From a virus: a stretch of 64,000 nt of DNA. The position numbers and the translations under genes were made by a program. Of this stretch, positions 14,802 through 38,561 are shown in pieces. The stretch's first letter is position 1. Each line of letters begins with the position of its first letter. The notes beneath the pieces are model-generated. The model was given only the letters and a program-made list of their open reading frames with translations. It was not told the origin of the DNA and searched no databases. The stretch covers positions 16,046-80,045 of the IMG/VR virus record IMGVR_UViG_3300024054_000015. One strand, written 5' to 3'.

Positions 14802-14996
14802 TCACTCCTGGCTTTCGGCTTTCCTCGCAAGCTCCATCAGGGCACTGGTAATCTGCTCCTCTGTTATTCTAGCCTTTCGGCTCTTTGTGTTGTCGGTCAT
14901 CTGTACAAAACATCTCAGCCTTCTATTCGTTTTCGCTCTTATCATGTTCTCCGTAACAAACACGGAATTCATTCCACCTAGTTCTCTAACGCTCAT
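14802..14996 (-). CDS. Hypothetical early protein
   Basis: Tiled ORF. Confidence 0.45.
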   Translation of the reverse strand: MSVRELGGMNSVFVTENMIRAKTNRRLRCFVQMTDNTKSRKARITEEQITSALMELARKAESQE

Positions 14997-15397
14997 AGCT
15001 TTACTCCCAACTTTTCCATTCTGGCCGTTACCTCGGCCATCTCTTCATCACTCAAGGTTACTCCAGCCTGCTCGCAGGCTTGCAGTGCTGCCAACAGGGC
15101 TTGCATTTCATCCAGTTGCCCTCGCAGCTTCTTCGGCCTGTTCTTCTCTGCAATAAGTTCATTCTGCTTCTCGTTACTCTTATGGTAGCACGCCTGGCAT
15201 ACCGTCGTAACGTTCCAAGTGTCATAACCATTCTGGTTAATCAACAGCCTCGTAGCTTCCACTTCCTCCGCCTCCTCCACTGTAAGGCAAGGCTTGCAGT
15301 GGTAGGGGCAGTTTCGGCATCGTCCTATTCGGTACACTTCAGGTGGCATACTACCTGCCCTCCCGTCCTTATTTCCAAATGGTAATATTCTAATCAT
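14993..15397 (-). CDS. Cys-containing coiled-coil hypothetical protein
   Basis: GGAG RBS at 15401-15404; CxxC motifs. Confidence 0.55.
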   Translation of the reverse strand: MIRILPFGNKDGRAGSMPPEVYRIGRCRNCPYHCKPCLTVEEAEEVEATRLLINQNGYDTWNVTTVCQACYHKSNEKQNELIAEKNRPKKLRGQLDEMQALLAALQACEQAGVTLSDEEMAEVTARMEKLGVKL

Positions 15398-15473
15398 TCG
15401 CTCCACGCCTTACACTGCCTGCGCTGCCTGCTATACGCTGCGCCACTGTGTAGGCAAAAACCAATAGGCGCAA

Positions 15474-15505
15474 TAAAGCCCGTATGGCAAGCCATACGGG
15501 CTTTA
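15474..15505 (-). terminator. Intrinsic terminator-like hairpin of the island gene
   Basis: TAAAGCCCGTATGGC-AA-GCCATACGGGCTTTA perfect inverted repeat. Confidence 0.7.
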
Positions 15506-15521
15506 CGTGCGCTGCGCTGTG

Positions 15522-15875
15522 TTACTTGCCAGCGCTTACCAGCATGTAGTAGGCTGTGCCACCAACGGTAGTACCGTTGTTGCCAACGTAGCCGCCAGTG
15601 GTAACGCTTACCACTTGGCCAGCGCTGGCAAGCTTGCGCAATGTGCCGCGCAGTGGTGCCCATACAAGCTTGCCATTGCTGCGCTTGCGCGGCTTAAAGC
15701 CGCAAGCTTGCGCTACTTGGCGCAGTGTGTAGGGCTTACCTGCCTGCAAGCTTGCAAGTACTGCGCTGCCTTGCGGCGCTGCCTGCGCTGTGCTGGCAAG
15801 CGCTGCCTGCAATGCTGCAAGCGCTGCCTGTTGGGGGCTGGTGGTGGTGCTGGTGGTGGTGCTGGTGGTTGCCAT
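15522..15875 (-). CDS. Asp/Glu-free basic protein with probable winged-helix domain
   Basis: 117 aa with no D/E; AVLASLQAGKPYTLRQVAQACG...LRGTLRKLASAGQV looks wHTH-like; own promoter, AGGGG RBS and terminator. Confidence 0.7.
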   Translation of the reverse strand: MATTSTTTSTTTSPQQAALAALQAALASTAQAAPQGSAVLASLQAGKPYTLRQVAQACGFKPRKRSNGKLVWAPLRGTLRKLASAGQVVSVTTGGYVGNNGTTVGGTAYYMLVSAGK

Positions 15876-15907
15876 GTGCGTTACCCCTAAGCTGGTGGTG
15901 CAGTACC

Positions 15908-15968
15908 GTTGCTGCCACATTGGCAGCAACCGGCGTAACAGTGGCAACAACCGCAAGCGCTGTGCCAA
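15908..15968 (-). promoter_or_regulatory. Sigma54-type promoter with downstream TGCCA-N3-TGGCA palindrome
   Basis: Minus strand TTGGCAC-AGCGC-TTGCG (15968-15952); perfect IR GTTGCTGCCA-CAT-TGGCAGCAAC (15908-15930). Confidence 0.65.
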
Positions 15969-16102
15969 TGGCGCGCAAAATGGCTACAAGTGGCAGCGCG
16001 CGCGCACATATATGTTGTGTGCGCGCGCCGCCCCTGCCGGTCATTCACCATACAGACTCATAGAAAGTTTGGATAACATGGAAATACGACTATTGGAAAT
16101 AT

Positions 16103-16142
16103 CTAGACCTCCATACAAGATCCGTTTGTATGGAGATCTAGG
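16103..16142 (-). terminator. Hairpin downstream of the 16152 ORF
   Basis: CTAGAcCTCCATACAA ... TTGTATGGAGaTCTAG. Confidence 0.55.
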
Positions 16143-16151
16143 TTAGACTGC

Positions 16152-17402
16152 TCATCCTTGTGACTTGTCCAAGCTTCCAATGTCAATACCCATCAGGTCA
16201 CCAAACACTTCCCCAACCGTTGGACAAGCTGCCAACCTTTCCACTCCATCCTGGTCCTTGATTAGATCAAGGGTGACGTCCTCCTCAGCCAACTTCTTGT
16301 TTTCTGCGAATTTCCACCAGGATTGGACGATTAGGGCGACCCTTTCCTGGAGAAAAGAGCCTCCAGCAGAGTCCATCAGTTCTGATACAGCTTGTATGAG
16401 CAGCTTCATGGACTTGTCGCCAGAAGCGATGGCAGTCCAAAAGCTGCAAGCCTTATCCCACATGTCCCAATTCAGCAAGTCCTCTGTGGGACAGTCGGCC
16501 TGGATGTAGCCTGTGCCCTCGGAGTTCTCCCGCTCGCTGCTACTGGACCCCATGAGGTACAGCAGTGCCGCAGCGTATCCAGGACTGGGATAATACTTGA
16601 GCTTGTCGTCATTTCCATTCTCCTCGTATATGTGCCGCACGCACTCCAGGAGCTTCGGATGGCGTTGGATGAAGTCCAAGCTCTCGGCATGTGTACGCCT
16701 GGGAGCAAAGGCGTTTTCGCTGGCTCCAGTGCGCTGCCAGAGCAGCCTCACAGCATAGTCTGCCATACGGCTGAGCATTTTCAGCTTACGCTTGTCCTTG
16801 GACCTGGAGGCGTCCATGTCTCCAAACAGCCCGGAGGCGTAGATGGCATCCGCCAAGCTACGAGGCTTGCCAGTGTTGATGGTGTTAATGCTTTGGATGT
16901 CTTCACGTACTCCAATGTTGATGAAGCAGTGAATCTTCGGCTCTTCTCCCCAATGGTGGTACTTGTCCGGATTGTTGAGCCATTCCTGCTCAGCCAGCAC
17001 TAAGCCGATTAGGCGATGCTTCCCGTCGATCACTAGGGCTGTGCGGCTGATAATGATCGACTCACCGTTCGCCTCGCCGCCATCGCCGTTCCAGTGCCCA
17101 CCGAGTATTTCGCCCATCCACTGCAAGGCAGTAGCCATATAGAACGGTCGCTGCTTCTCGACGTTAAAGCACTTGGTTGCGACTCCATTGCGGTCCTTCA
17201 GGAGAAATTCTGTGTAGGGCTTGTCGGCGTTGTCCGACTGCTTCCAGCCTAGGAAGGTTCGAGCCTGCTCGGCTGTTAGCCAACCTACCTTCCCCTTGAG
17301 CTCGGGGTAGATCACCTTACGCTCTTTGGGCGGCGCTGGCTCTTTGGACTGCTTCTTGCTCTTAGCCTTGGACTCTTCCAACTTTTCAACAAACTTCGGC
17401 AT
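16152..17402 (-). CDS. ParB/Srx-like (DGxHR motif) domain protein
   Basis: NGESIII...IDGKHRLIGL and INTGKPRSLAD motifs; AAGGAG RBS. Confidence 0.6.
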   Translation of the reverse strand: MPKFVEKLEESKAKSKKQSKEPAPPKERKVIYPELKGKVGWLTAEQARTFLGWKQSDNADKPYTEFLLKDRNGVATKCFNVEKQRPFYMATALQWMGEILGGHWNGDGGEANGESIIISRTALVIDGKHRLIGLVLAEQEWLNNPDKYHHWGEEPKIHCFINIGVREDIQSINTINTGKPRSLADAIYASGLFGDMDASRSKDKRKLKMLSRMADYAVRLLWQRTGASENAFAPRRTHAESLDFIQRHPKLLECVRHIYEENGNDDKLKYYPSPGYAAALLYLMGSSSSERENSEGTGYIQADCPTEDLLNWDMWDKACSFWTAIASGDKSMKLLIQAVSELMDSAGGSFLQERVALIVQSWWKFAENKKLAEEDVTLDLIKDQDGVERLAACPTVGEVFGDLMGIDIGSLDKSQG

Positions 17403-17412
17403 GTGTTGCTCC

Positions 17413-17745
17413 TTAACCAAAATCAACTGCACTAGGTACAAACTGTTCCCTTTCGTCCAACTCTTCCTGAGGAACATCCTCAGGTTCTACTGGCTGTGCT
17501 GAAAGCGTTCTCCTTTCTTTGAGTTCTTCTTTTGTCAGGTACTGCCATCCACATAGACCCTCGTCTAGTTCTGGGGCTTCGTGGTTGGCAGTAGAGGTAC
17601 TAATGACCTTAATACCTATCCCTTTAGTAGTCCCACGGCCATTAGACCGTACGATGTGGTCCTCACTAGACCACCCTGCGCGAATTTTCGCAGTTTCCTG
17701 GGCAATTTCTTCCTCTGTGGGAAGATAGGGTGTAGCCCTCGGCAT
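17413..17745 (-). CDS. Hypothetical protein
   Basis: AAGGAGG RBS; PTEEEIAQETAKIRAGWS motif. Confidence 0.6.
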   Translation of the reverse strand: MPRATPYLPTEEEIAQETAKIRAGWSSEDHIVRSNGRGTTKGIGIKVISTSTANHEAPELDEGLCGWQYLTKEELKERRTLSAQPVEPEDVPQEELDEREQFVPSAVDFG

Positions 17746-17920
17746 TTGGAACCTCCTTTAGTTGCTGGCTGTTGTTCCAAGTATGCCTAATTATACACAA
17801 CTATTTATGTTTTAACAATAACCCCTTTGGGTGGGGCTAACAAGCAGTTCGGATCTACTTTGGATCTTCTTTAACTCTTACTCTAATAATATAATAATAA
17901 AATAATAAGAATACTGACCC

Positions 17921-18014
17921 ATTGTAAGTATAGTGGAGAATGCCGCAAGTGCAAGGCCCGAGGCCGCGAATGGTGTGCGGCTCCCTTGCAAAAGCCTTAT
18001 TTATGCTTTAACAT
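17921..18014. promoter_or_regulatory. Divergent sigma70-like promoters
   Basis: Plus TTGCAA(17986)-17-TAACAT(18009); minus TTGCAC-16-TATACT; AT-rich flank. Confidence 0.55.
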
Positions 18015-18020
18015 AAAGGT

Positions 18021-18593
18021 GTGGCACCTTACCCTTCTCTTCAGAAAGTTGCGGCGATGCGGGAAGAATTCGAAAGGATGATTGAGTTAGGCAAATGCGG
18101 GTACAAGCTCGCAGTCCTCAAGATTGTTAGACCAGACACCGATCCCGAGTACACCTACCAGTTAAGGCTGGATGGGCTGCGCTATGGGCAGTTCGGCATT
18201 GTGCAGGAGGATGAGATCTTCTACGTGGTCCACGTGGGCTCGGGCAGAGTTTGCGGTGAGTTCACAGTTATTGAGACTGCTGAGCGTGAGGTTTTTCTTC
18301 TCAGAAAATTGACCGACTGGAGGAAGGTTGGCTGGAGTGACAATGAGAAGTTTCTAAAGAGTCCTTTCCGCTTCATCTGTGCTGAAGCTGCGGAGTATTG
18401 TGTAGGTCTGGACAAGCCATTTGACAGACTCGCCAAGGCTGTGAAGGCCGCTCTCCCTAAGACTAAGGAAGAGATCGTGGAAGAGTTTGCATTTGAGCTA
18501 CAGTCCACTCCATTCGGGGATGATGAGGAATTTGTACCTCCCAAGCGGTCTGAAGCCAAGAAAGACGATGGCTGGGGGCATACTATTACATAG
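18021..18593 (+). CDS. Hypothetical protein (possibly leaderless)
   Basis: First ORF of the rightward arm; GTG 7 nt after the -10 box. Confidence 0.6.
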   Translation: MAPYPSLQKVAAMREEFERMIELGKCGYKLAVLKIVRPDTDPEYTYQLRLDGLRYGQFGIVQEDEIFYVVHVGSGRVCGEFTVIETAEREVFLLRKLTDWRKVGWSDNEKFLKSPFRFICAEAAEYCVGLDKPFDRLAKAVKAALPKTKEEIVEEFAFELQSTPFGDDEEFVPPKRSEAKKDDGWGHTIT

Positions 18594-18607
18594 TGGCGGC
18601 GGCGGGC

Positions 18608-18635
18608 TTGCCTTATTACTGTTTGTGGTTACTAT
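18608..18635 (+). promoter_or_regulatory. Sigma70-like promoter
   Basis: TTGCCT-16-TACTAT; ATG 18642 lies 7 nt downstream. Confidence 0.55.
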
Positions 18636-18641
18636 ACTAAT

Positions 18642-18857
18642 ATGGCACATAAATACAGCAATTATCGTGGTCGTCCAAGGAAGTATCCATGGAAGACCTG
18701 GTTCAAAAACTCTGTGACCCATTTGGTTCGTGGTAAGGACTACCAGTGTGAACCTTATAGTCTGGCTATACAGATACGCAGGATGTCTAACATCCTGGAC
18801 ATTCCAGTTACGGTCTCCGTACATGCAGAGCGGGTGACCATTACGAGGTTGAAATGA
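18642..18857 (+). CDS. Small basic DNA-binding-like protein
   Basis: RGRPRKYPW (AT-hook-like) N-terminus. Confidence 0.6.
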   Translation: MAHKYSNYRGRPRKYPWKTWFKNSVTHLVRGKDYQCEPYSLAIQIRRMSNILDIPVTVSVHAERVTITRLK

Positions 18858-19318
18858 ACTACACAGAGAAAGACTTAAAAAGGTTCTGGAGCAGAGTCAA
18901 CAAGTCTGGACCTGTTCATCCAGTTCATGGAACCTGTTGGAATTGGAAGACTTGGGATGGACGTAACTTCTATCACTATGGTGACTTCTTCTGCCAGGGA
19001 AGAATCTACAGGGCTCACAGGTTTTGCTGGGAGCTCCTTGTTGGACCAATTCCAGAAGGACTTATCGTCTGTCACAAGTGCGATAACGGAGGTTGTGTTA
19101 AGCCTAGTCATTTGTTCCTTGGCACTTACCAAGACAATATGACTGACGCCTCTGTTAAGGGTAGGATGAAAAGTCCTAAAGCTAAATTGAACAAGACTCA
19201 GGTTAGAAGAGTGAGGCAGGGTAAGGAATCCTTGGCCAAGCTGGCTAGGGAGTTTGGAATAACTGTTCCGGCGTTGATTCAAGTGAGAAAGAGAACTACT
19301 TACAAGTGGGTGAAATAA
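18854..19318 (+). CDS. HNH homing endonuclease
   Basis: RFWSRVNK..CWNW..RAHRF..VCHKCDNGGCVKPSHLFLGT..DN. Confidence 0.9.
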   Translation: MNYTEKDLKRFWSRVNKSGPVHPVHGTCWNWKTWDGRNFYHYGDFFCQGRIYRAHRFCWELLVGPIPEGLIVCHKCDNGGCVKPSHLFLGTYQDNMTDASVKGRMKSPKAKLNKTQVRRVRQGKESLAKLAREFGITVPALIQVRKRTTYKWVK

Positions 19319-19818
19319 TGCCTAAGCTCCCTATTCCTATAGTCATTAAACCTGAACCTTGGTTCATTGGAGTAGATCCAGGTCAGTCTGGAGGAATCGC
19401 TGTAGTCTCTTTCAGTGTAAAGTGTGAGTACCTTTTCAAAATGCCTGAGACAGAGCAGGGCATTTGGGAGCTCTTTAGAGACCTATCAGTTGCATGTGAG
19501 TGTCGTGCTGTGATAGAGAAGGTTCACGCCATGCCTAAGCAGGGTGTATCATCCACATTCAAGTTTGGCTGTGGATATGGTGGGCTTAGGATGGCTCTAA
19601 CTGGAAACCTAATTCCATTTGAGGAGGTTTCTCCACAGACTTGGCAGAAGCAAATGGGTATCCGTCCTCGAGCAAAGACGGAGAGCAAGAACGATCACAA
19701 AAACAAGCTCTTAGCAGCCGCCCAGCGACTATTTCCTGGACCGAGAATTACCAAGGCTACTGCTGATGCTCTATTGCTGGCGGAATACCTGCGTCGTGAG
19801 TACAGGGGAGTCATGTAA
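19318..19818 (+). CDS. RuvC-like Holliday junction resolvase
   Basis: IGVDPGQSGGIA, AVIEKV, FKFGCGYG, PQTWQK, ADALLLA. Confidence 0.85.
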   Translation: MPKLPIPIVIKPEPWFIGVDPGQSGGIAVVSFSVKCEYLFKMPETEQGIWELFRDLSVACECRAVIEKVHAMPKQGVSSTFKFGCGYGGLRMALTGNLIPFEEVSPQTWQKQMGIRPRAKTESKNDHKNKLLAAAQRLFPGPRITKATADALLLAEYLRREYRGVM

Positions 19819-20387
19819 TGCCTAGAGTTGGCGATACTCCTTGGCAACGCTTTAAGCTCAAGTGGTCTGACTGTACGCAGTGTGAACTGTGTCAGGTACG
19901 GAAGAAGATCGTGCTGTGTCGTGGCAGTATCCCCTGTGATGTACTCCTGATTGGTGAAGCTCCTGGAGCCAGCGAAGACGTAATAGGTCAACCGTTCGTT
20001 GGACCTGCCGGTCACTTGTTGGATGAGCAGGTAGAGAATGTCATGAAGAACCTGGACTTCCCAGAGATCAGCTTCTGCTTCACCAACCTAGTATGCTGTA
20101 TCCCCAAGGTTCATGGCCGAAAGATCACTGAACCTATGGAGGAGCATGTGGACTCCTGCCAGCAGAGGAGGCTCGAGTTCATCCAGTTGTGCCAGCCTAA
20201 GATTATAGTCTCTGTTGGAGACTTGGCCTACAAGTACCTGGAGAGGGATGAGTTGGAAACCGTTAAGATCACTCATCCTGCGGCAATCCTCAGGGCTGAG
20301 GTTGTAAGGCAAGGACTTATGTATCAGAAAGTGGTGGTAACTCTAGAAAACGCCATAAGGGATCTGTTAGATGGACAAGTTCATTGA
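19818..20387 (+). CDS. Family-4-like uracil-DNA glycosylase (Fe-S)
   Basis: CTQCELC, IGEAPG, GQPFVGPAG, TNLVCC, HPAAILR. Confidence 0.85.
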   Translation: MPRVGDTPWQRFKLKWSDCTQCELCQVRKKIVLCRGSIPCDVLLIGEAPGASEDVIGQPFVGPAGHLLDEQVENVMKNLDFPEISFCFTNLVCCIPKVHGRKITEPMEEHVDSCQQRRLEFIQLCQPKIIVSVGDLAYKYLERDELETVKITHPAAILRAEVVRQGLMYQKVVVTLENAIRDLLDGQVH

Positions 20388-27918: not shown

Positions 27919-29925
27919 GTGCCGAAAGTAAAGGAGCATATCTATGCCTTGGATACCGAAGCTACAGGGTTAGATCTAAGGCATGGGGCTAGGCCGTTCT
28001 TTGTCAGCATTTGCACACAGGACAACGAGGTACACTATTGGGAAGCTACAGTTGATCCACTAACTAGGAGGCCTTATTGGAAAGAGGAGGACTTGTATGA
28101 AATCCAGGAGATGATAGATGAGGCCGATACCTTGGTCCTGCAAAACCCTCGGTACGACTTTCGTGGGCTGGACCTGTTGGGACTCAGGGCTGGTACTCCA
28201 AGGAATTGGATCAAGGTCCGCGATACGTTAATGGCTGGGCATCTGCTAGTGTCCAATCAGCCACATGATCTAACCACTATGGCTATGATCTATCTGAGGC
28301 TGAACATTCAACCACTTGAGGACAAGCTGGAGGCAGCGGTTAAGGAGGCCGTTAGGATTGCCAAGCGCAAGTACCCTAAGTGGAGGTTGGCTAAGAAAGA
28401 CCTGCCCGAGATGCCTAGTGCCAAGGACAAGGTCTGGAAGTACGACTCCTGGCTACCCAAGGCTATTGCCGCAGCAGAGGGCTACGAGCCTGACCATGAC
28501 TGGTGGACCGTTCTAGCAAACTACGGCAACGGCGACAGTAGTGTGACCCTGCCGTTGTACTTAGCCCAGGAGAAGCTGCTAATCAAGGCTGGGCTTTACA
28601 GTATCTACAAGTTCCGGCTCAAGCTGTTGCCAACCATCTACAAGATGGAAACACATGGCATGACTATGAGTAAGGAGCGGACCACCGAACTACTGGCTAG
28701 GCTCACAGATGAATCCGAGCAGTGTCGCGCTAACTGTATAGAGCTCTCTGATGGAGAGTTGGAGGACTTGCCCGTTAATGGAATGAGCAATGCTCTACGG
28801 CATGTGCTGTTTGAGAAGTTCTCCTTACACTCACCTAAGCAAACAGCCGCAGGAAAGTCCAGTGCTGACAAGTTCGTGCTGGACCACTGGATCGCTACTC
28901 TTCCAGAAAGTTCCAGGGCTTGGAAGTTTGTTAACGACCTGAAGAGGTACCGAAAGCGTAAGACTGCCATAGGGTACATTCACTCCTATGAGAAGTTCTG
29001 GCAGCATACGGTAGTCACGCTGCGTGGTAGTGGTACTGTCATGATAGTGTACCCCTCGTATAATCCGACGGGCACAGATACGCTGCGGTTCAGTAGCCAG
29101 AACCCTAATGCCCAACAGGTCAGCAAGCAGGAGGAGGTCAACACTCGCTACTGCTTTGGTCCAGCCCCAGGTCGTGAGTGGTGGTCCATAGACTTCTCCA
29201 ACCTGGAGTTGCGTATCCCAGCCTACGAGTCGGGCGAAGAGGAGATGATATTCCTGTTCGAGCATCCGAACGATCCACCCTACTATGGCTCCTACCACAT
29301 GATGATCTTCGACACGCTGCACCCTAACCTGTTCCTGGAACATGGTATGGAGTGCAAGAAGGTCTTCGAGTCTACGTGGTATCAGTGGACCAAGAATGGA
29401 AACTTTGCTGTGCAGTATGGGGCTGTGGAGCATAGTGGTACGGCAGATAAAGCCTACCACGTACTAGGAGCCCAGCGTAAGATCATGTCGCGGTTCACTA
29501 GGATCAAGCAACTCAGCAATCGGTGGATCGAGTTCGCCAATAAGTCTGGCTATGTGGAAACAATGCCCGACAAGACAGTGGACCCTATTCGGGGTTATCC
29601 CCTATACTGTACCCGCACCAACTACGGCAAGGTCTTGGAAACAGTGCCTCTAAGCTACCACGTTCAGGGTACTGCCATGTGGATCACCTGTAGGGCGATG
29701 ATTGACTGCCAGAACTACTTGGACATACATAAGAGTAGTGGTGGCAGGATAATCTCACAGATCCATGACGAGATCCTGTTCGACTTCCCGGTAGGTGTAG
29801 GCAAGCACCATGTTGGGAATCTTAGGAAGCTAATGGAGCAGGTAGGTCAGGATATTGGGGTTCCATTGGCAACCACTTGCGGCTATCATCCAGTAACTTG
29901 GGCCAAGTCGGAGAACTATCAGTGA
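27919..29925 (+). CDS. Family A DNA polymerase with 3'-5' exonuclease
   Basis: ALDTEATG (ExoI), TLRFSSQNPNAQQ, IDFSNLELR (motif A), KNGNFAVQYG (motif B), QIHDEI (motif C). Confidence 0.95.
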   Translation: MPKVKEHIYALDTEATGLDLRHGARPFFVSICTQDNEVHYWEATVDPLTRRPYWKEEDLYEIQEMIDEADTLVLQNPRYDFRGLDLLGLRAGTPRNWIKVRDTLMAGHLLVSNQPHDLTTMAMIYLRLNIQPLEDKLEAAVKEAVRIAKRKYPKWRLAKKDLPEMPSAKDKVWKYDSWLPKAIAAAEGYEPDHDWWTVLANYGNGDSSVTLPLYLAQEKLLIKAGLYSIYKFRLKLLPTIYKMETHGMTMSKERTTELLARLTDESEQCRANCIELSDGELEDLPVNGMSNALRHVLFEKFSLHSPKQTAAGKSSADKFVLDHWIATLPESSRAWKFVNDLKRYRKRKTAIGYIHSYEKFWQHTVVTLRGSGTVMIVYPSYNPTGTDTLRFSSQNPNAQQVSKQEEVNTRYCFGPAPGREWWSIDFSNLELRIPAYESGEEEMIFLFEHPNDPPYYGSYHMMIFDTLHPNLFLEHGMECKKVFESTWYQWTKNGNFAVQYGAVEHSGTADKAYHVLGAQRKIMSRFTRIKQLSNRWIEFANKSGYVETMPDKTVDPIRGYPLYCTRTNYGKVLETVPLSYHVQGTAMWITCRAMIDCQNYLDIHKSSGGRIISQIHDEILFDFPVGVGKHHVGNLRKLMEQVGQDIGVPLATTCGYHPVTWAKSENYQ

Positions 29926-30311
29926 AGGCTAAGTGTGTAGCTATCTTAGATACTATGTGGGGAGGATCTGGCAAGGCTCCAGGTATGTTTAGGATAAACC
30001 CTAAGAACCACACAGGCCGGAGGCTGTACTGGTTCCTCGGCCACAAGGATCTATGGGTTACGAATGCCTGCACAGAGTACGTCGCCAATGCCAAGCTGCA
30101 CGGGAGGCCAGACCCTAAGAGGTTGGCAACTAACCTCCAGAGAGTCACCTGTGACCTATTGCTGGTCTGTGGTTCGGTGGCTGCTAAAGCCTTTAGGAAG
30201 TGTGGCTACAAACCGAAGTGTAGGGTCATATACATTCCGCATCCAGCTTGGCGTGGTTGGACAATGGAGCACTTGGAAGAAGTGAGAAGGAGAATACAAG
30301 ATGAAGATTGA
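29922..30311 (+). CDS. Minimal UDG-like fold protein
   Basis: TGRRL, VTNAC, LLLVCGSVA, IPHPAWR; GTG overlaps the pol stop. Confidence 0.55.
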   Translation: MKAKCVAILDTMWGGSGKAPGMFRINPKNHTGRRLYWFLGHKDLWVTNACTEYVANAKLHGRPDPKRLATNLQRVTCDLLLVCGSVAAKAFRKCGYKPKCRVIYIPHPAWRGWTMEHLEEVRRRIQDED

Positions 30312-31179
30312 AGATGTTAGGAAGCTAAGCCCAGAAGGGAGGTTTCTGTATTGGGTTGGGGAAAGATGGAATATCCTTAGCAAGAGAAGGAGTGGCTATG
30401 TAAGGCCCTGGACGAATGACAAGATCTTACAGTCCTACTACTTTACCAATGTGAAGCGTAAGGATGACAAGGTCACCATCTGGGTTACTGAGAACATTAT
30501 TGGACCAATGCAATGGGATCCACTGGTCATCTTTGCAGTCCTAGCCTTTCGGTGGTTCAACCAACCCCAACCTTCTGGAGAGTATCTAGTAAGTCATGAT
30601 CTTCTAAAGCTGTGGAACTGCGAGTTGGCAGTGAAGGGACTTACAGGGTTCAAGAACGCGGGCTTGAAAGTGTTCACTGGAGCCTTTAACATTTCCAATG
30701 GAGGTAGTAGCAAGCCTAAAGTCAACCGCGTCTGCGAGGACTACATCCAGCCAGTATGGGAGTGTCGAGAGAACTTACTGAACCGTATATTAGAGCCCAA
30801 GGAGCGTACCCTCGCAAGAGCCTTTGAGGTAATCTCCGAGTATCCAGGTATGGGTGGCAGTGGCTTCATGGCTGCTCAGGTTGTCTGTGATCTAGCCTAC
30901 ACACACTTTCTAGAGGATGCTAAGGACTTTGAAACATGGTGTTCCTGGGGTCCGGGAAGTAGACGTGGTATGAATAGAGTGTGTGGCTTTGATGAAAACT
31001 TTCCAATGCCAGCAGGGGATTGGAATGTTAGACTTCAACGCTTGCGTGGGGTCATCAGTAGGAAGCTTGGCCTAAACCTCCATGCCCGCGATGTTCAGAA
31101 CTGTCTATGTGAGTTCTCGAAATACGAAAGGGCTTTGTGGAATCAAGGTCACTTAAAGAGGAGGTACAAGGGTGCCTAG
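30301..31179 (+). CDS. aGPT-Pplase1 / 5-hmdU-DNA-kinase helical-domain family protein (thymidine hypermodification)
   Basis: ERWNI..RRSG..PWTNDKILQSYYFTNVKRKDD, GFMAAQVVCDL, GPGSRRGMNR, DVQNCLCEFSKY. Confidence 0.8.
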   Translation: MKIEDVRKLSPEGRFLYWVGERWNILSKRRSGYVRPWTNDKILQSYYFTNVKRKDDKVTIWVTENIIGPMQWDPLVIFAVLAFRWFNQPQPSGEYLVSHDLLKLWNCELAVKGLTGFKNAGLKVFTGAFNISNGGSSKPKVNRVCEDYIQPVWECRENLLNRILEPKERTLARAFEVISEYPGMGGSGFMAAQVVCDLAYTHFLEDAKDFETWCSWGPGSRRGMNRVCGFDENFPMPAGDWNVRLQRLRGVISRKLGLNLHARDVQNCLCEFSKYERALWNQGHLKRRYKGA

Positions 31180-32089
31180 AATACAGGAGCAGTTGATTGT
31201 CTATGTCCCCACTAGGGGAAGAGCTCGCAAGCAGACAACCCTCAAGCAGTTTGACCTCTATAAAAGGCCAGACGTGTTTGTAGTGGTTCCAGAGTGTGAA
31301 CGCAGGTTGTGGACTAGGGATGTGCTGGTAGTTCCAGACGACTACAAGTTTTCTGACATTCGGCAGTTCATCCTTAACTGTCCTGGGAAGTACCATCTGG
31401 TGTTGGATGACGACCTAAGACCCGCGGTCAGAAGGATCGACGATCCAACTAAGTTCACCAACCTAGAGGTTATGGACAGGGCTTCTAGGGCAGACCATAT
31501 TGACCAACTGTTTGATACGATACTGTCGTTACTCCAAGAGGGATGGGTGCATGGAGGCATTGCGGCTCGGCAAGGGGCCAACAACGACACCAATCAGTAT
31601 CAGTTCTGTAGTCGGGTGGTAAGAGCCCACTTCTACAACGCAGAGATTGTGAAGAGTCTAGGACACGACTTTCGGCAGTTCGTTATTAAGCAGGACTATG
31701 ACTTCATCCTGTCCATGCTGTGTAAGGGGATCCCTAACATAGTGATAAACGAATATGTCCAGGATCAGGTTGGCAGTAACACTTCAGGAGGTTGCTCCAG
31801 GTATAGGACAAGCTCGGTGCTAGAGGAAGGAGCTAATCTACTACACCAGAAGTATCCAGACTTCGTAAAGGTGGTGCATAAGCACCCCAAGACTTCCTGG
31901 GGAGGAAAGCCTAGAGTGGATGTAGTGATCCAGTGGAAGAAAGCCTATAAGGAGGGGTTAGAGTATGCCCGTCATTTACAGAGAAAGAATCCGGCCTCCA
32001 TGGACAATAAAGATAGAGCAATCGCGCGGTTGCAACCTCTCATGCAAGTTCTGTCCAATAAACTACTTGAAGGAAATCAACCAAAGTAG
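31172..32089 (+). CDS. GT-A glycosyltransferase of the DNA-modifying (TET-associated/GREB1-like) type
   Basis: YVPTRGRA, LVLDDDL, QDYDFILSML..G, SNTSGGCS, WKKAY. Confidence 0.7.
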   Translation: MPRIQEQLIVYVPTRGRARKQTTLKQFDLYKRPDVFVVVPECERRLWTRDVLVVPDDYKFSDIRQFILNCPGKYHLVLDDDLRPAVRRIDDPTKFTNLEVMDRASRADHIDQLFDTILSLLQEGWVHGGIAARQGANNDTNQYQFCSRVVRAHFYNAEIVKSLGHDFRQFVIKQDYDFILSMLCKGIPNIVINEYVQDQVGSNTSGGCSRYRTSSVLEEGANLLHQKYPDFVKVVHKHPKTSWGGKPRVDVVIQWKKAYKEGLEYARHLQRKNPASMDNKDRAIARLQPLMQVLSNKLLEGNQPK

Positions 32090-32861
32090 GAAGTTCCTAA
32101 GCCCCTCAATGTGTAGGATTATTACTCGGCAGGCAGTGGAGCTAAAGCCCAACCTGAGAGTGGAACTGACCCTTAGAGGGGAGCCTACTCTAAACCCGCA
32201 CATTCTGGAGAACCTCTCCATTATTAGAGAGGAGGCGCCTGAGTTCCAGATAAGTCTGTTCACCAATGGGGTGAAGACCTTTGGTGATCCGTCCCTGATC
32301 GTAGCGTTGCTGGATGCAGGTGTGAACATCCTGTGCATCGATTGCTACAACAATACCTACCAGAGATTTCTCGAAGCTGCCAAGAGAACCAAGGAGCAGG
32401 TCGTGGACTTCAGGGAGTTCTCTGCCTACAAGAGATACAGGAACGGTCATAGGCTACGGGTTATCAACCTAGTACCCGACATCCAGGAGGGATCTGTAGA
32501 CGTCAGGAAGATCCACAATAACGCTGGAAACGTGGACCCCGAGTACCTGTCTAAACTTGAGGGCTACGTTAAGCAAGCCCTACCATTGGCCCGAGGATGC
32601 TCTAGACCATTCACTGAGGTTGTGGTCTACTACAATGGGGATGTTCCAATCTGCTGTAGTGATTGGAAGGCTGAGTATGTCCTAGGTAATGTTATGGACC
32701 AAGACCTATCGGACATCTGGTATGGTAAGAGACACTACGAAGCCTTGGTGAAGCTTCACATGTCTAGGGCAGATAGAAGTCTACCTCCATGTGCCAAGTG
32801 TGACTACCACGGTGGGTATCGTCTTGGACTTCTGCAAGATCCAATAAAAAACCCCCGCTGA
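31965..32861 (+). CDS. Radical SAM enzyme with SPASM/twitch domain
   Basis: GCNLSCKFC, GEPTL, CSRPF..GDVPICCSD..LGNV..PCAKC. Confidence 0.85.
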   Translation: MPVIYRERIRPPWTIKIEQSRGCNLSCKFCPINYLKEINQSRKFLSPSMCRIITRQAVELKPNLRVELTLRGEPTLNPHILENLSIIREEAPEFQISLFTNGVKTFGDPSLIVALLDAGVNILCIDCYNNTYQRFLEAAKRTKEQVVDFREFSAYKRYRNGHRLRVINLVPDIQEGSVDVRKIHNNAGNVDPEYLSKLEGYVKQALPLARGCSRPFTEVVVYYNGDVPICCSDWKAEYVLGNVMDQDLSDIWYGKRHYEALVKLHMSRADRSLPPCAKCDYHGGYRLGLLQDPIKNPR

Positions 32862-32884
32862 ACACCGTTCAACGAGGGTTGTTT
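32846..32884. terminator. Probable bidirectional terminator
   Basis: AAAAACCCCCGCTGAAC/GTTCAACGAGGGTTGTTT between convergent genes. Confidence 0.55.
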
Positions 32885-32905
32885 GTGTTGATCGTAGTTG
32901 CCGTG

Positions 32906-33226
32906 TTAGCTCTTTGATTCCTTCAGGGCTTTTTCCAGGGCTTTTCGACCAACGGGTGTAATCTTGAATCTCTTGCCACGCTTGCCTTCCTCGGCCACCA
33001 GTTCCTGTAGATATCCTTTCTCCACAAGCTCGGGCAGTCGGCGTCCCTTGTCGATCCCGGTCGAGGAACTGATCTCAGCGGCAGTCAACACGCTACCACT
33101 CTTCAGCGAGTCCAACACCTTCATCATGTTGGGAGTAAGATCCTTTGGCTCCCGAGGGGTTTGCTCCTTCTTCTCCTCCTTGGCGACCTTTCCCTTCTTC
33201 ACTGGAAGTTCTGCTGTCTTGGGCAT
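32906..33226 (-). CDS. Winged-helix DNA-binding protein, paralog of 12764-13468
   Basis: LTPNMMKVLDSLKSGSVLTAAEISSSTG...RGKRFKITPVG; AAGGAG RBS. Confidence 0.75.
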   Translation of the reverse strand: MPKTAELPVKKGKVAKEEKKEQTPREPKDLTPNMMKVLDSLKSGSVLTAAEISSSTGIDKGRRLPELVEKGYLQELVAEEGKRGKRFKITPVGRKALEKALKESKS

Positions 33227-33272
33227 CAAATGCTCCTTTAGAAATGTAACCAACAAAACACCACTACCTTGC

Positions 33273-33300
33273 ATTGTAGGGTATAATGAAGTATTGGCAA
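33273..33300 (-). promoter_or_regulatory. Sigma70-like promoter
   Basis: Minus strand TTGCCA-16-TACAAT. Confidence 0.5.
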
Positions 33301-33366
33301 GTCCTAGCTGAAAAATTTGTTCAAATAGTTGCAACTCGTGTTCCCACTCTCACTTAGGAGCAGACA

Positions 33367-34413
33367 ATGCACCTGTCTTACATGAATGTGAACGCCGCTT
33401 TCAACGACTTGGTGTGCAAGTTCCACTACAGTGAAATCCCCATAACTGTAGCCCCTAGTAGGAATGGGGACGTGATCATGGCGACCCAGCCCATGACCAT
33501 CACCTACCTGAACCCCAAGCAAAGAGTCTTGTTTAACGAGGCTCGGGATTGCAACCCATTCTTTCATCTGTTTGAGTCCTTGTGGATACTGGCTGGCAGG
33601 GATGACGTCGCTCCTCTGAAGTATTTTGTGTCTACGATTAATGAGTTCTCTGACACAGGTTTCACGTTCAATGGTGCCTATGGTCAGAGATTGAGGTACT
33701 TCCATAGGATTGATCAGATTAAAGAGGCCATTGCCCAACTGAAGCACAACCCAAACTCTAGAAGGGTAGTGCTACAGATGTGGACTCTCTCAGACATGAT
33801 GAAAGCTGACAACAGACATGGAACCATGTCCAAGGACGTTCCATGCAACACACATGCCTACGTCTCTATCAACCCACTTGGCCTAGAACTAACTGTCTGT
33901 AACCGAAGCAACGACATGATCTGGGGAATGCTGGGAGCCAATGTCGTACACTTCTCTTTCCTTCAGGAATACTTGGCGGCTTGTATAGGAGTTCCGGTCA
34001 ACGTCTACAATCAGTTCACTAACAACCTACACGTTTACCGAAGCAACTGGAAGCCAGATGAATGGTTGAGTGACCGGACCGAGGATCTGTATAGTATGCC
34101 ACGCGTCTTGAGAGCAGTGCCCTTAGTAAAAGACGTAGAGAGGTTCAACTACGAGTGTGCAGAGTTCATAGACCTAAAGGAGGATGGAGTCTATCAGGAA
34201 CCATTTCTTAACGACGTAGCTGTCTGGGCTTGCTTGGGGTACAGACACCATAAGAACCGGGAGTACCCTCGAGCTCTGGAAGCTGTGTCCAGGATAGAGT
34301 CTGATGATTGGAGAGTTGCTTGTCGTAGGTGGTTGGAACGAAGGTCAGTAGCTTGGAGGAAGAAGAATGGAGATGTCGAAAGAGCCGAGAGTTGTGATAA
34401 CGCTGAGGCTTAG
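33367..34413 (+). CDS. Thymidylate synthase superfamily enzyme, probable dUMP hydroxymethylase
   Basis: SRRVVL, KDVPCN, NRSNDMIWGMLGANVVHF (Asn at the dUMP/dCMP specificity position), NNLHVY; context next to the aGPT-Pplase1-like gene. Confidence 0.8.
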   Translation: MHLSYMNVNAAFNDLVCKFHYSEIPITVAPSRNGDVIMATQPMTITYLNPKQRVLFNEARDCNPFFHLFESLWILAGRDDVAPLKYFVSTINEFSDTGFTFNGAYGQRLRYFHRIDQIKEAIAQLKHNPNSRRVVLQMWTLSDMMKADNRHGTMSKDVPCNTHAYVSINPLGLELTVCNRSNDMIWGMLGANVVHFSFLQEYLAACIGVPVNVYNQFTNNLHVYRSNWKPDEWLSDRTEDLYSMPRVLRAVPLVKDVERFNYECAEFIDLKEDGVYQEPFLNDVAVWACLGYRHHKNREYPRALEAVSRIESDDWRVACRRWLERRSVAWRKKNGDVERAESCDNAEA

Positions 34414-34645
34414 TAAGCTCGAGAGGGACAAGTTGATTGACAAGGCTAACAAGATGGGCATTAGCCTGAACGAGTACCTGAGGTTTAGATTAGGATTCCC
34501 CCTAAATGAAAAGAGTACCAAGATCATCAGCGCTCCAAACCCCTATCTCATCAACGAACTTTCCAGATCTATCGCTACCGAACTTGCCAGACAGGAGGCC
34601 AGTCCTAACAAAGCAGGACTTTGCCCGCCGGTATCGTTCGGGTGA
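34367..34645 (+). CDS. Ribbon-helix-helix protein
   Basis: VVITLRLSKLERDKLIDKANKMGISLNEYLR. Confidence 0.6.
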   Translation: MEMSKEPRVVITLRLSKLERDKLIDKANKMGISLNEYLRFRLGFPLNEKSTKIISAPNPYLINELSRSIATELARQEASPNKAGLCPPVSFG

Positions 34646-35129
34646 GTTCGGCAATGCCGCCCCTACGTGGGATTGCAGTATCGAGCTACTCCGTTCTGGC
34701 TATCTAGATCCAGTACATCTACGCTGTAGGGAGTCTAGTGGAGCAACCTTCTACAACCTGGAGCCTTCAGAAGCTCTACGCATGTGGAAGGCAATGCCCT
34801 TCCCAGAGATGTACTACTGCTCGGCAATGGCTCCACATGGTAGGGGAACCATCCAAGGCGAAGTACAGCAAACAGAAAGGGGTTTGTCACTGTTGGCCTT
34901 TAGTGCCGACATAACTATGCGGGATGCTATGGCAAGGCGTGGTGTGGAGCTACATGGCATCCTTGCCGTCCACTTACTGAAGATGAACATGTGTCCTAAG
35001 AGCTATGACTGGCTTCAGTTCCTACTGGAGGCCTATCCACTTCATGTTGTGGAGTTCACTTGCTTTGATTGTAATTGGGGTACGTTACCTGGATTCAACA
35101 CCGTCTTTTGGGAGGTCCGCCTGTATTAG
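34506..35129 (+). CDS. Hypothetical protein in the modification cluster
   Basis: Long ORF; start uncertain because of overlap. Confidence 0.55.
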   Translation: MKRVPRSSALQTPISSTNFPDLSLPNLPDRRPVLTKQDFARRYRSGEFGNAAPTWDCSIELLRSGYLDPVHLRCRESSGATFYNLEPSEALRMWKAMPFPEMYYCSAMAPHGRGTIQGEVQQTERGLSLLAFSADITMRDAMARRGVELHGILAVHLLKMNMCPKSYDWLQFLLEAYPLHVVEFTCFDCNWGTLPGFNTVFWEVRLY

Positions 35130-35138
35130 GAGTTCTAA

Positions 35139-35684
35139 ATGCCGTTTACACAGAAAATTTTAGACAGATTCTGGTCCAAGGTAGATAAGAAAGGTCCTAT
35201 CCATACAGCCTATGGGAAATGTTGGACCTGGAGTAGTGCAATTAACAATAAAGGATACGGTGTGTTTAGCCTACGTAGAGGTAGAAATTCCTACTCTCAC
35301 AGGCTATCTTGGAGGATTCATTATGGTAAGATTCCGGACGGGATGTGTGTACTTCACAAGTGCGACAACCCAAGATGTGTAAATCCAAGCCATTTATTTC
35401 TTGGATCTCACAAGGACAACACGCAGGACATGATTAGAAAGGGAAGGAGAGGATACACTGGAGTATCTGGAGACTCAAATCCTTCCAGGACTCATCCAGA
35501 GTGTTTAGCTAGAGGCTCTAGTCATGGAATGGCAAAGCTATCAGAAGGTCAAGTTTTAGAAATTCTTAAACTTAGAAAGGTTGGGTATACGCAGGCCAGA
35601 TTAGGAAAGATGTTTGGTGTTAGCAGGGAGCAGATTAAGAATATTGTCAACAATAAGCAGTGGAGACATGTCGTATGTCAATGA
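35139..35684 (+). CDS. HNH homing endonuclease with C-terminal HTH
   Basis: RFWSKVDK..CWTW..HRLSW..VLHKCDNPRCVNPSHL. Confidence 0.9.
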   Translation: MPFTQKILDRFWSKVDKKGPIHTAYGKCWTWSSAINNKGYGVFSLRRGRNSYSHRLSWRIHYGKIPDGMCVLHKCDNPRCVNPSHLFLGSHKDNTQDMIRKGRRGYTGVSGDSNPSRTHPECLARGSSHGMAKLSEGQVLEILKLRKVGYTQARLGKMFGVSREQIKNIVNNKQWRHVVCQ

Positions 35685-36292
35685 CTCTAAAAGAGTATCA
35701 ACAGTTAGCTCTACGAACGGAATGTGATCAAAATCGCAGTCTTAACAACATTGTTCATCATCAGCCTCCACTTATTACTGTTAGGGCGCTACACAGTGTG
35801 ATTGGAATGTCTGGAGAAGTAGGTGAATTATCTGGGTCCATAGAGAAATGGATCTACTATGGACAACCCTTGGATGTTTTGAATATCAAAGAGGAGATAG
35901 GAGACCTACTATGGTATGTGAATCAGTTATGCAGCGTGTTACATCTGGACCTAGGACAGATCATGGAGGCCAACATTGCCAAGCTGAGACAACGCTATCC
36001 CCAGAAGTTCGAGGAAGTCTTAGCCAAGGAAGAGAACCGCGACCGTGCTGCTGAGGCGGAGTGTGTAGCCTGTAGCACAGGTGGAAACATGAACTGTTCG
36101 GAGGAAGTCACGGAGAGTGGATCCGACTTCATCAAGCATCAAATGCTGAATAAGCCTAGGACTGCTCTCTGCCCTCATTGTGGTGGGCATCTGAATAGAC
36201 AGGCTTGTAACAGGGCTGCTGAGGGTGGTAGGTCCGTAGCGTGCCCAGACTGCTTGAAATCGTTTTCCGTTAAGGAGATCAGATACGCATGA
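35681..36292 (+). CDS. MazG-like nucleotide pyrophosphohydrolase with C-terminal Zn ribbon
   Basis: EYQQLALRT, GMSGEVGEL, EEIGDLLWY, ANIAKLRQRYP. Confidence 0.85.
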   Translation: MTLKEYQQLALRTECDQNRSLNNIVHHQPPLITVRALHSVIGMSGEVGELSGSIEKWIYYGQPLDVLNIKEEIGDLLWYVNQLCSVLHLDLGQIMEANIAKLRQRYPQKFEEVLAKEENRDRAAEAECVACSTGGNMNCSEEVTESGSDFIKHQMLNKPRTALCPHCGGHLNRQACNRAAEGGRSVACPDCLKSFSVKEIRYA

Positions 36293-37184: not shown

Positions 37185-38561
37185 ATGCCGAGATTGCCAG
37201 CACTTGAAGAGCCCTTACAGCCTGCCACCCAAACAAGCCCAGCAAGGCCCCTACAAGCCCGTTTAACGCATTTGCGGGCTTTATTGGGGTTGGTGCAGCC
37301 TGTACCGCGCGCGTGGCTTGTAGGGGCTGCTAGGGGCCTTAAAAGCCATGCCACTAGTTCGGGGGGTGAAGAAACTACCATTAGACTTAAATCCTGCGAG
37401 TCGTATCAAGATCTCGTGAAGGCTTGGCGTAAGGCCCTCAAGTGGTCTCCAGGTCTTGATAACACGTTAGCAGTGATGTTAGCCTCGAGCTTCTCTACAC
37501 AGTTCGTTGGAGAGCAGTTGTGGCTTAAAGTCATCGGGCCTCCTAGTTGTGGAAAGACAACCCTAATGGAAGGGTTAGCCACTGCTAGGAAGTGGTATTT
37601 GAGTAAAGATACCATACGAGGCTTTCATAGTGGTTGGAAGCGTGAGGACAATGCAGACGTATCGTTAGCCGATATGGTCAAGGGAATGACATTAGGGACT
37701 AAGGATGGCGATACACTCCTCAAGGCTCCCAACCTCAAACAGATACTAGCCGAGGCTCGAGCTCTCTACGATCGTGTATCCAGAACCAACTACCGCAACG
37801 ATACCAATCGTGAGTACCAAGGTCATCGCATGACTTGGCACCTAGCAGGCACTAACGCTCTTAGGGAGATCGACGACTCAGAGCTTGGTGTAAGGTTTCT
37901 GGACGTAGTGGTAATGGATAAGATTGATGACGAGTTCGAGTACGAGGTCTGCTGGAGGGCTGTCAACCAAGAGATGATCAACATGCGTCATCTCTCTGAC
38001 GGAAAACCCGAAACGCAGTATCCTGAGGATTTGGCTAATGCAATGGCCCTTTCTGGAGGATATCTCGACTTCCTCAGGACTAATGCTGTGGAGCTAGCTC
38101 GTAGTCTAGAGTTGTCTGATGAAAGCGTCGTTAATCGCTGTATTCAGCTAGGGATCTTCACAGCCTTTATGCGTGCTAGATCTGGTGCTAACTCCGAGGA
38201 AGCTACTCGTGAGTTTGGCCCTAGACTAACGACACAGTTAGGGCGATTGGCTACAGGATTAGCCTGTGTCTTCAACAAGCCTAGAGTTGATGATGAGGTC
38301 ATGCACAAGACTTGGCAAGTCGCTATGCACACATCCAGAGGGCCTACGTTAGAGCTCGTGAAGGTTCTACACAAGATCCCTCAAGGGATAGAAGTGCGTG
38401 GTTTAGCAGCCCTAATGCGTGCTAATGATGACAAGCTGCGCGCGCAGTTAAGATTCTTGCGAGCTATTGGTGTAGTGGAAACTGATGTGAACTTTAAGCG
38501 TTGGCGTATAACTCCCAAGCTATCCAAGCTCTATGAGGCTGTCAATGCCCAGAGATCCTAA
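37185..38561 (+). CDS. P-loop ATPase, putative replicative helicase
   Basis: IGPPSCGKTT Walker A; follows primase; C-terminal wHTH-like region. Confidence 0.7.
   Translation: MPRLPALEEPLQPATQTSPARPLQARLTHLRALLGLVQPVPRAWLVGAARGLKSHATSSGGEETTIRLKSCESYQDLVKAWRKALKWSPGLDNTLAVMLASSFSTQFVGEQLWLKVIGPPSCGKTTLMEGLATARKWYLSKDTIRGFHSGWKREDNADVSLADMVKGMTLGTKDGDTLLKAPNLKQILAEARALYDRVSRTNYRNDTNREYQGHRMTWHLAGTNALREIDDSELGVRFLDVVVMDKIDDEFEYEVCWRAVNQEMINMRHLSDGKPETQYPEDLANAMALSGGYLDFLRTNAVELARSLELSDESVVNRCIQLGIFTAFMRARSGANSEEATREFGPRLTTQLGRLATGLACVFNKPRVDDEVMHKTWQVAMHTSRGPTLELVKVLHKIPQGIEVRGLAALMRANDDKLRAQLRFLRAIGVVETDVNFKRWRITPKLSKLYEAVNAQRS
37244..37340. repeat. Inverted-repeat-bounded ~100-bp element B inside a 150-nt GA/TC-free tract (37210-37359)
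   Basis: AAGGCCCCTACAAGCC ... GGCTTGTAGGGGCTGCTAGGGGCCTT. Confidence 0.65.

Follow-up and report, generated by a model that had tools for sequence, protein, structure and literature searches.

In this study we analyzed a 64,000-nucleotide stretch of viral DNA (hereafter the window), i.e. bases 16046-80045 of the single linear, 80,045-bp IMG/VR virus record IMGVR_UViG_3300024054_000015, and focused on a gene module located directly downstream of the DNA polymerase gene polA (positions 29922-36292; coordinates refer to the window unless stated otherwise). The completeness of the record is 100% according to CheckV, and a megablast search against 50,697 phage records revealed no relatives of the region at the DNA level. 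The gene content of the module points, with moderate confidence, to hypermodification of the DNA of a lytic-type tailed phage, in which 5-hydroxymethyl-2′-deoxyuridine (5hmdU) would be made prior to replication and then subjected to glycosylation and radical tailoring.

A first-pass annotation of the letters alone had described this span as a thymidine hypermodification cluster with a non-standard enzyme set. Its borders are exact: position 29922 is the first base of a GTG codon overlapping the polA stop codon (29925) and 36292 is the end of the MazG gene. Assignment with hidden Markov models (HMMs) of Pfam and PHROG bore out the gene identities, apart from a reported "orphan" and an omitted gene. 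The orphan comprises two genes, an open reading frame (ORF) of an uncharacterised family (34506-35129) and an HNH endonuclease gene (35139-35684), and the orphan reading holds for neither; the omitted gene encodes a winged-helix protein and lies on the minus strand between the genes for the radical S-adenosylmethionine enzyme (rSAM) and the thymidylate synthase (TS) homologue. The following features were distinguished:

27919-29925, plus strand: polA, family A DNA polymerase (PF00476, E 9e-34; phrog_17, 4e-59), its stop codon overlapping the next start
29922-30311, plus strand: 129-aa ORF resembling the uracil-DNA glycosylase (UDG) superfamily on indirect evidence (ORF129), GTG start, outside the conserved module
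30301-31179, plus strand: HMUDK_hel (helical) protein, 292 aa (PF18723, 1.4e-38)
31172-32089, plus strand: TAGT-type GT-A glycosyltransferase (GT), 305 aa (PF20691, 3.6e-10, above the cut-off; phrog_842, 5e-35)
31965-32861, plus strand: BtrN-like rSAM, 298 aa (Radical_SAM and SPASM)
32850-32880, minus strand: terminator-like hairpin with a stem of 14 bp and a T run after it
32906-33334, minus strand: small winged-helix protein, weakly MarR-like (NCBIfam MarR, 1.8e-4)
33367-34413, plus strand: TS homologue of the predicted dUMP hydroxymethylase type, 348 aa (PF00303 Thymidylat_synt, 1.2e-20; phrog_5131, 4e-93)
34506-35129, plus strand: 207-aa protein of an uncharacterised family (ORF207), 588 relatives, no Pfam family
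35139-35684, plus strand: free-standing HNH homing-type endonuclease with a C-terminal HTH (PF13392, 6e-15; phrog_59, 5e-36)
35660-36292, plus strand: MazG-type nucleoside triphosphate pyrophosphohydrolase with a C-terminal zinc ribbon (PF03819, 1e-9; phrog_229, 7e-33)

The TS homologue was compared with ThyA of Escherichia coli, in which four positions are diagnostic: (i) C146, the catalytic residue; (ii) N177, where Asn specifies dUMP and Asp specifies dCMP; (iii) L143, where a bulky residue leads to a methyl product and an acidic one to a hydroxymethyl product; and (iv) D169, whose replacement by Asn marks 5-hydroxylases (PMC13326640). ThyA positions 143, 146, 169 and 177 correspond to Asp157, Cys160, Asp183 and Asn192 of the phage protein, and an identical D/C/D/N signature is carried by M6 gp58, PaMx11 gp51, PhiJL001 gp24 and LuckyBarnes gp41. 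The Asp at the D169 position is kept in 52 of 55 aligned TS homologues, and the window protein scores far under the cut-offs of the NCBIfam TS equivalog models. Its closest named relatives are the enzymes of M6, YuA, Ab18 and PaMx11 (39-42% identity), and phages of the M6/PaMx11 group make 5hmdU-derived bases (PMC8989533). Since both the signature and the closest relatives match phages with such bases, the comparison supports the assignment of the protein as a dUMP hydroxymethylase. The earlier claim of a dUMP-type enzyme agrees with Asn192 at the N177 position, and the hydroxymethylase signature is present as well. Two other assignments were ruled out, a 5-hydroxylase of the RB69 gp48 type by Asp183 and a cytosine enzyme by Asn192.

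The GT scores 40.5 bits against the TAGT family PF20691 (curated cut-off, 27.5), and its GT-A motif, D79-D80-D81, is invariant in 22 sequences; a sequence/profile search of the PDB gave no match for this protein. The rSAM gene has a strong ribosome-binding site (AAGGAGG), and its first 125 nt also belong to the reading frame of the GT. The cluster-binding motif of its product (C23x3C27x2C30) is invariant in 32 sequences, and so are Cys 212, 230, 276 and 279, which are enough for one auxiliary cluster; the C-terminal domain is a truncated, Twitch-like SPASM domain in which the SPASM pattern can be traced as far as CX2C and no further. For the structural model of the enzyme (predicted local distance difference test score, pLDDT, 91) the best PDB match is BtrN (4m7t; Foldseek E 2e-14, TM score 0.77-0.80 normalised to BtrN), five orders of magnitude better than the next fold and ahead of the sactipeptide enzymes, anSME and PqqE, and the structural matches also include SpeY and DesII, i.e. 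enzymes of sugars and cyclitols. BtrN, a radical SAM enzyme, is the 2-deoxy-scyllo-inosamine dehydrogenase of butirosin biosynthesis and has a sugar-like aminocyclitol as its substrate. The two proteins share the fold, the small size and the cysteines for one auxiliary cluster in a shortened SPASM domain; they differ in that the window enzyme is only 19% identical to BtrN and is encoded in a phage beside a DNA glycosyltransferase. Judging from the model, the rSAM is closest to a BtrN-type, sugar-dehydrogenase-like enzyme. Membership of the M6 gp53 isomerase family was ruled out, as the alignment is limited to CX3CX2C. The only homologues found in cultured phages are distant ones of Campylobacter phages, annotated as BtrN protein, and the closest homologues (65% identity) are located on metagenome contigs.

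The helical protein matches PF18723 over residues 15-281 of 292. It is a clade-1 aGPT-Pplase paralogue, orthologous to PaMx11 gp50 and to M6 gp55 (30% identity, E 1e-32), which was described as the second aGPT-Pplase paralogue of M6 in a 2018 paper and found not to be needed for the synthesis of glycinyl-thymidine in vitro in a 2021 paper. A sequence/profile search of the PDB yielded no match. The structural model (pLDDT 94, built from an alignment of 26 sequences) adopts a helix-hairpin-helix, glycosylase-like fold, for which the best PDB match is PaMx11 gp46/PUGT (Foldseek probability 0.94; VIA-align Z 11.4, rmsd 4.4, 228 residues aligned), followed by the queuine-salvage protein DUF2419 and Ogg/AlkA-type glycosylases. 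PaMx11 gp46 is the 5-PmdU glycinyltransferase, an amino acid:DNA transferase (ADDT), and its Cys247 is the proposed nucleophile attacking C6 (PMC11472151). Among the 17 invariant residues of the helical family are Cys270 and Glu271, which form part of the motif LCEFxKYER, and in the sole segment of this family that hhalign aligns with gp46, Cys270 falls on Cys247, which fits the ends of the structural alignment. Clade-2 enzymes depend on a Cys as well as on a Glu close to it, and their methylene intermediate is reducible to thymidine (PMC8989533). The helical protein therefore seems to keep the catalytic Cys of gp46 and, because of the gp46-like fold, the invariant Cys-Glu pair and the Cys270/Cys247 pairing, is read as a likely enzyme, equipped with a nucleophilic Cys of its own, rather than as a domain that only binds DNA. 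It was also considered as a GT-specific adaptor; this was ruled out, since it is found without a GT and with kinases.

The first-pass annotation had recognised neither a P-loop kinase of 5-hydroxymethyluracil (hmU) nor a pyridoxal phosphate (PLP) decarboxylase in the window. Their absence extends to the whole 80,045-bp record, the inspection of which revealed no kinase, ADDT or PLP enzyme. In tblastn searches of the record, no match below E 0.1 was obtained with (i) five 5-HMUDK kinases (best E 0.12), (ii) three ADDTs, (iii) the PLP enzyme of M6, (iv) the FAD lyase of PaMx11, (v) M6 gp53, (vi) Nmad5, or (vii) a dCMP deaminase. With an HMM built from seven kinases, the best E on all six-frame ORFs was 0.79, and in a control search this HMM recovered all four kinases of related loci (see below) at 1e-63 or better; P-loop motifs in the record are confined to Sak4, helicases and structural genes. 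For the ADDT family (aGPT-Pplase2, PF18724) no six-frame Pfam match was found in the record; the same PF18724 search detected the family in M6, in PaMx11 and in the record from which one related locus (L045) was taken. A local ADDT HMM was also negative on the six-frame ORFs and recovered the ADDT of related loci as a control. Tet_JBP (PF12851) gave no six-frame match in the record, in a search run without a positive control, and is absent among the approximately 80 Pfam-scanned ORFs.

A single-sequence scan of IMG/VR with the rSAM retrieved nothing, while a scan based on an alignment of its homologues retrieved 80 loci, to which one was added via the GT (81 loci, numbered with the prefix L). 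Gene counts in these loci, obtained with HMMs built from the matches, were: GT, 60; TS homologue, 46; helical protein, 33; HD-domain NTPase, 32. The GT gene lies within 300 nt of the rSAM gene in 38 of the 60 loci, mostly directly upstream, and polA lies within 9 kb of it in 41 of the 81. The commonest full order is helical protein, GT, rSAM, TS, HD, polA, and in the 32 loci with the HD-domain protein it takes the position of MazG. Among cultured phages, PhiJL001 encodes a helical protein (gp19), a GT (gp22), Nmad5 (gp23) and a TS homologue (gp24), and the Brevibacterium phage LuckyBarnes a TS homologue, two GTs and a helical protein (gp38; PF18723, 5e-68); this rSAM is missing from both. The set of enzymes is thus not singular: the module recurs in uncultured phages and, in part, in these two cultured ones.

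The distribution of the genes separates the GT-rSAM pair from the helical protein. In eight loci the TS homologue is of the cytosine type (Asp at the N177 position); all eight carry GT and rSAM, and none carries the helical protein or the HD-domain protein. By comparison, the helical protein is present in 29 of 34 uracil-type loci, and of the five exceptions, three are truncated by the end of the contig. Four loci (L040, L045, L050 and L079) have a kinase beside the rSAM and no GT, and one of them, L045, encodes an ADDT (weak match) besides its 5-HMUDK kinase. Judged by gene content, the GT-rSAM pair behaves as a portable, self-contained cassette, predicted to be usable with producers of either hmU or 5-hydroxymethylcytosine (5hmC), and the helical protein, which tracks the uracil-type TS and not the GT, would have an hmU-specific job of its own.

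A small ORF located between the rSAM and TS genes was also observed in six of the eight cytosine-type loci (L025:10063-10554, L030:9533-10024, L032:10054-10545, L039:2641-3132, L048:9989-10429 and L058:10262-10741). Its match to the kinase HMM is weak (E 2e-4 to 9e-4), and by analogy with T4 it may encode a nucleotide kinase for modified dCMP.

We propose the following pathway. Judging from its active-site signature and homology, the TS homologue would make 5-hydroxymethyl-dUMP from dUMP; on the same basis, MazG would deplete dTTP and dUTP, and the phage polymerase would build DNA in which 5hmdU replaces T. The TAGT-type GT-A enzyme, as suggested by its family, DXD motif and gene coupling, would then transfer a sugar from a nucleotide sugar to the hydroxymethyl group in DNA. 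The rSAM, which appears to be translationally coupled to the GT and has a BtrN-like fold, would oxidise or otherwise rework a secondary alcohol of the sugar, either on DNA or on the donor ahead of the transfer. In a further step, HMUDK_hel, a paralogue of ADDTs, might catalyze an hmU-specific reaction at the C5 substituent, independently of kinase and GT. Because the pair of a GT and a sugar-dehydrogenase-like rSAM is tight and conserved, a glycosylated, radical-tailored hmU, as suggested in the first-pass annotation, is the best-supported product, albeit an inferred one. The base J-like picture drawn there is incomplete: with the helical protein probably being a Cys enzyme, it leaves one conserved part unexplained.

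Several observations weigh against this pathway. All of its enzymatic steps are inferred. A Z score of about 11 for a helical fold falls within the range that VIA-align flags as a possible common arrangement, the hhalign pairing of Cys270 with Cys247 is not significant alone, and gp55, the helical paralogue of M6, is dispensable in vitro. Six loci with the helical protein and a TS homologue have no detectable GT, four of them having a kinase, so that the rSAM would not be strictly dependent on a sugar substrate. Finally, the genome has, outside the module, a second cluster of glycosyltransferases, methyltransferases and rSAMs, which might or might not contribute to this product. This cluster (L007:472-7841, i.e. 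12472-19841 of the record, reaching window position 3796) encodes, in order: (i) a 347-aa rSAM-SPASM protein; (ii) a 177-aa SAM methyltransferase; (iii) an unknown 273-aa ORF; (iv) a Caps_synth-like GT; (v) a GT2-methyltransferase fusion (449 aa); (vi) an unknown 265-aa ORF; (vii) a DXD GT (287 aa); and (viii) a B12-binding rSAM (452 aa). Homologues of its genes were not found in the 81 related loci, and it could extend a DNA glycan or serve an unrelated one.

The rSAM might act only on the donor, converting a host UDP- or TDP-sugar into an unusual keto or deoxy sugar that the GT transfers, with no radical step on DNA. We consider this explanation unlikely. In its favour, BtrN, SpeY and DesII all use small molecules, DesII a TDP-sugar, and the tight coupling of GT and rSAM suits donor supply equally well. 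Evidence against it comes from the four loci that pair the rSAM with a kinase (in one case together with an ADDT) and no GT, where a sugar donor would be useless, and from M6, in which an rSAM of an unrelated family works on adducts carried by DNA. Alternatively, the helical protein could be the real group transferase and the GT could merely activate the hydroxymethyl group, as the M6 kinase does; the Cys enzyme would then form an exocyclic methylene and add a nucleophile, or a hydride to give thymine, and the sugar would be absent or present at some positions only. The placement of the invariant Cys270-Glu271 on the catalytic Cys247 of gp46, the similarity of the folds (Z 11.4) and the clade-2 precedent of an essential Cys and Glu with a methylene reducible to thymidine (PMC8989533) are in line with such a role, as is the alternation of GT and kinase in similar loci, exemplified by the four kinase loci. 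A glycoside, however, is a poorer leaving group than phosphate, and L045 has its own ADDT beside the kinase. Moreover, GT and rSAM occur without the helical protein in at least 24 loci and also accompany cytosine-type enzymes, which argues for a self-sufficient pair, and we consider this alternative decidedly unlikely.

It is highly improbable that the TS homologue is an ordinary dTMP synthase and that GT and rSAM have a target other than DNA, for example in glycosylation of the virion or host surface. Annotation pipelines do name such proteins thymidylate synthase, and the genome contains another glycan-type cluster with no obvious tie to DNA. Against this stand the Asp at the L143 position, found in all tested hydroxymethylases, the scores far below the TS equivalog cut-offs, the location of the genes inside a replication module near polA, primase and helicase genes, the conserved pairing of the TS gene with HD or MazG genes, and the HMUDK_hel family, whose known members all come from hmU-modifying phages. 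We retain pre-replicative 5hmdU followed by glycosylation and radical tailoring as the preferred interpretation.

The region between positions 15403 and 16041 (639 nt) contains no GA or TC dinucleotide, with a genome frequency of 0.142 per nt; for other dinucleotide pairs of similar frequency the longest runs are 50-90 nt. Further GA/TC-free runs were found at 37210-37359 (150 nt) and 18568-18665 (98 nt). Extreme dinucleotide-free runs in related loci are again those of GA/TC: L065, 478 nt; L027, 172 nt; L029, 144 nt; L023, 142 nt; L028, 136 nt; and L059, 136 nt. L065 is the closest relative by polA (50%) and by the helical protein (40%), and both in the window and in L065 (16215-16692) the island covers a small minus-strand gene whose product is rich in Ala, Thr and Gln. 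Of the outliers, six come from loci that encode the helical protein and one from a locus that does not; the difference in run scores between loci with and without this protein was not significant in a rank test (p 0.18). The GA/TC-free islands are real and common to several related phages.

A more far-reaching combination of these elements, which we regard as rather unlikely, would make HMUDK_hel a DNA enzyme specific for 5hmU that depends on its Cys but on no kinase, and the GT-rSAM pair a base-agnostic cassette, with modification of T in the TC context and the GA/TC-free islands unmodified; HMUDK_hel might then turn unglycosylated hmU into thymine or another adduct. Were this the case, the islands would be kept unmodified for the binding of regulatory or replication proteins, and a whole transcription unit would have been shaped by a DNA-modification grammar.

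ORF129, at the 5′ end of the span, has no Pfam or PHROG match of its own, and a PDB profile search was also empty. Its neighbours in the ESM Atlas (a language-model resource) bear PF03167 (score 0.94), this family is precomputed for 6 of 43 of its homologues, and the motifs GxAPG and HPA are invariant; its G..A...HPA motif gives a weak hhalign match (E 0.019) with the true UDG of the window. On this indirect evidence, ORF129 is tentatively UDG-superfamily-like. No homologues were found in the 81 related loci, and a cryptic kinase was ruled out, as there is no similarity to PaMx11 gp49 or PhiJL001 gp18. The true UDG-superfamily gene (19818-20387; PF03167, 1e-17) is part of the replication module 10 kb upstream, so that, together with ORF129, the phage would encode two UDG-type proteins. 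In several related loci, a very long ORF matching the true UDG was observed beside the GT-rSAM pair (L018:10621-13992, also in L019 and L020; L036:12778-15411; and L052:15733-18375, where the helical protein and the TS homologue are encoded as well). A UDG-polA fusion like those of SP-15 and YerA41 is its probable product.

ORF207 has at least 588 metagenomic relatives, none with a Pfam family, and 30 residues are invariant across the family. Its homologues lie directly 3′ of the TS/HD genes in L015 and L065, and sequence/profile searches of the PDB gave no match. An Nmad5 protein like PhiJL001 gp23 was ruled out, as no similarity to Nmad5 was found. The HNH endonuclease located between ORF207 and the MazG gene is an insertion, not a pathway enzyme, and a second, paralogous free-standing HNH endonuclease is encoded at 18854-19318. 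MazG is the presumed dTTP/dUTP-clearing enzyme, in place of the HD-domain protein of related modules, and is followed at the 3′ side by primase and helicase genes. The terminator-like hairpin (32880-32850) sits downstream of the minus-strand gene and divides two plus-strand units. This gene probably starts with the Met codon at 33226, giving a product of approximately 106 aa, and has a promoter-like site at 33300-33273; the GC skew falls in this region (32-34 kb).

To our knowledge, every thymidine hypermodification pathway solved so far begins with a DNA kinase and an ADDT. The module described here has neither, and carries a DNA glycosyltransferase and a sugar-type rSAM instead. Its recurrence in dozens of uncultured phages and, partly, in PhiJL001 and LuckyBarnes makes the product testable at the bench, and the module offers a way to approach the clade-1 helical paralogue. 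A new thymine derivative carrying a sugar would bear on (i) phage resistance to restriction and CRISPR, (ii) hmU-labelling enzymes and (iii) sequencing artefacts in viromes. The protein families concerned were reportedly defined by Iyer et al. in 2013. In base J of kinetoplastids, the hydroxylase JBP1/2 oxidises T in DNA and JGT adds glucose. The predicted core of the product, DNA-borne 5hmU with a sugar at its hydroxymethyl group, would be alike; here, unlike in base J, hmU would be derived from dUMP with full replacement of T, no JBP homologue is present and radical SAM tailoring is added.

A full-text literature search found no characterisation of the combination of a DNA GT with a sugar-type rSAM, parts of which may be predicted by Iyer et al. 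(2013). The metavirome survey of Lee et al. took kinases as its anchor and was thus unable to reveal clusters that lack one. Glycosylation of 5hmC by TAGT enzymes (Burke et al., 2021, PMC8256090; Pyle et al., 2023, 10.1101/2023.12.21.572611) resembles the predicted system in the PF20691 GT, the post-replicative transfer and the hydroxymethylpyrimidine substrate, and GT-A enzymes often adjoin TS homologues in metagenomes (Pyle et al., 2023, 10.1101/2023.12.21.572611). In the present system, unlike in those of the TAGT enzymes, a TS homologue is predicted to introduce the hydroxymethyl group ahead of replication, and to do so on uracil, not cytosine, and no methyltransferase or Tet_JBP accompanies the module; neither TAGT paper mentions a coupled rSAM or a helical Cys/aGPT-Pplase protein. 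SP-15, YerA41 and Carin-5 (PMC12686479) carry oligosaccharide-modified thymidines; they resemble the predicted system in having sugar-bearing thymines derived from the product of a TS homologue and GT genes beside the polymerase gene, but differ in their dihydroxypentyl linker, UDG-fused polA and other gene sets. The main system for comparison is that of the clusters of the Pseudomonas phages M6/YuA and PaMx11 and of ViI, PhiW-14, SP10 and SH-Ab 15599 (PMC5889632, PMC8989533, PMC11472151, PMC13458397). With the M6/PaMx11 type the module shares the dUMP hydroxymethylase signature, an adjoining NTP pyrophosphatase gene, the clade-1 helical paralogue, the polA neighbour and an rSAM tailoring enzyme. 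It differs in having a TAGT-type GT in a record without 5-hmdU DNA kinase, ADDT, PLP decarboxylase and FAD lyase, in the presence of MazG instead of the HD-domain enzyme and, compared with M6, in its BtrN-like rSAM, which has only CX3CX2C in common with the gp53 isomerase.

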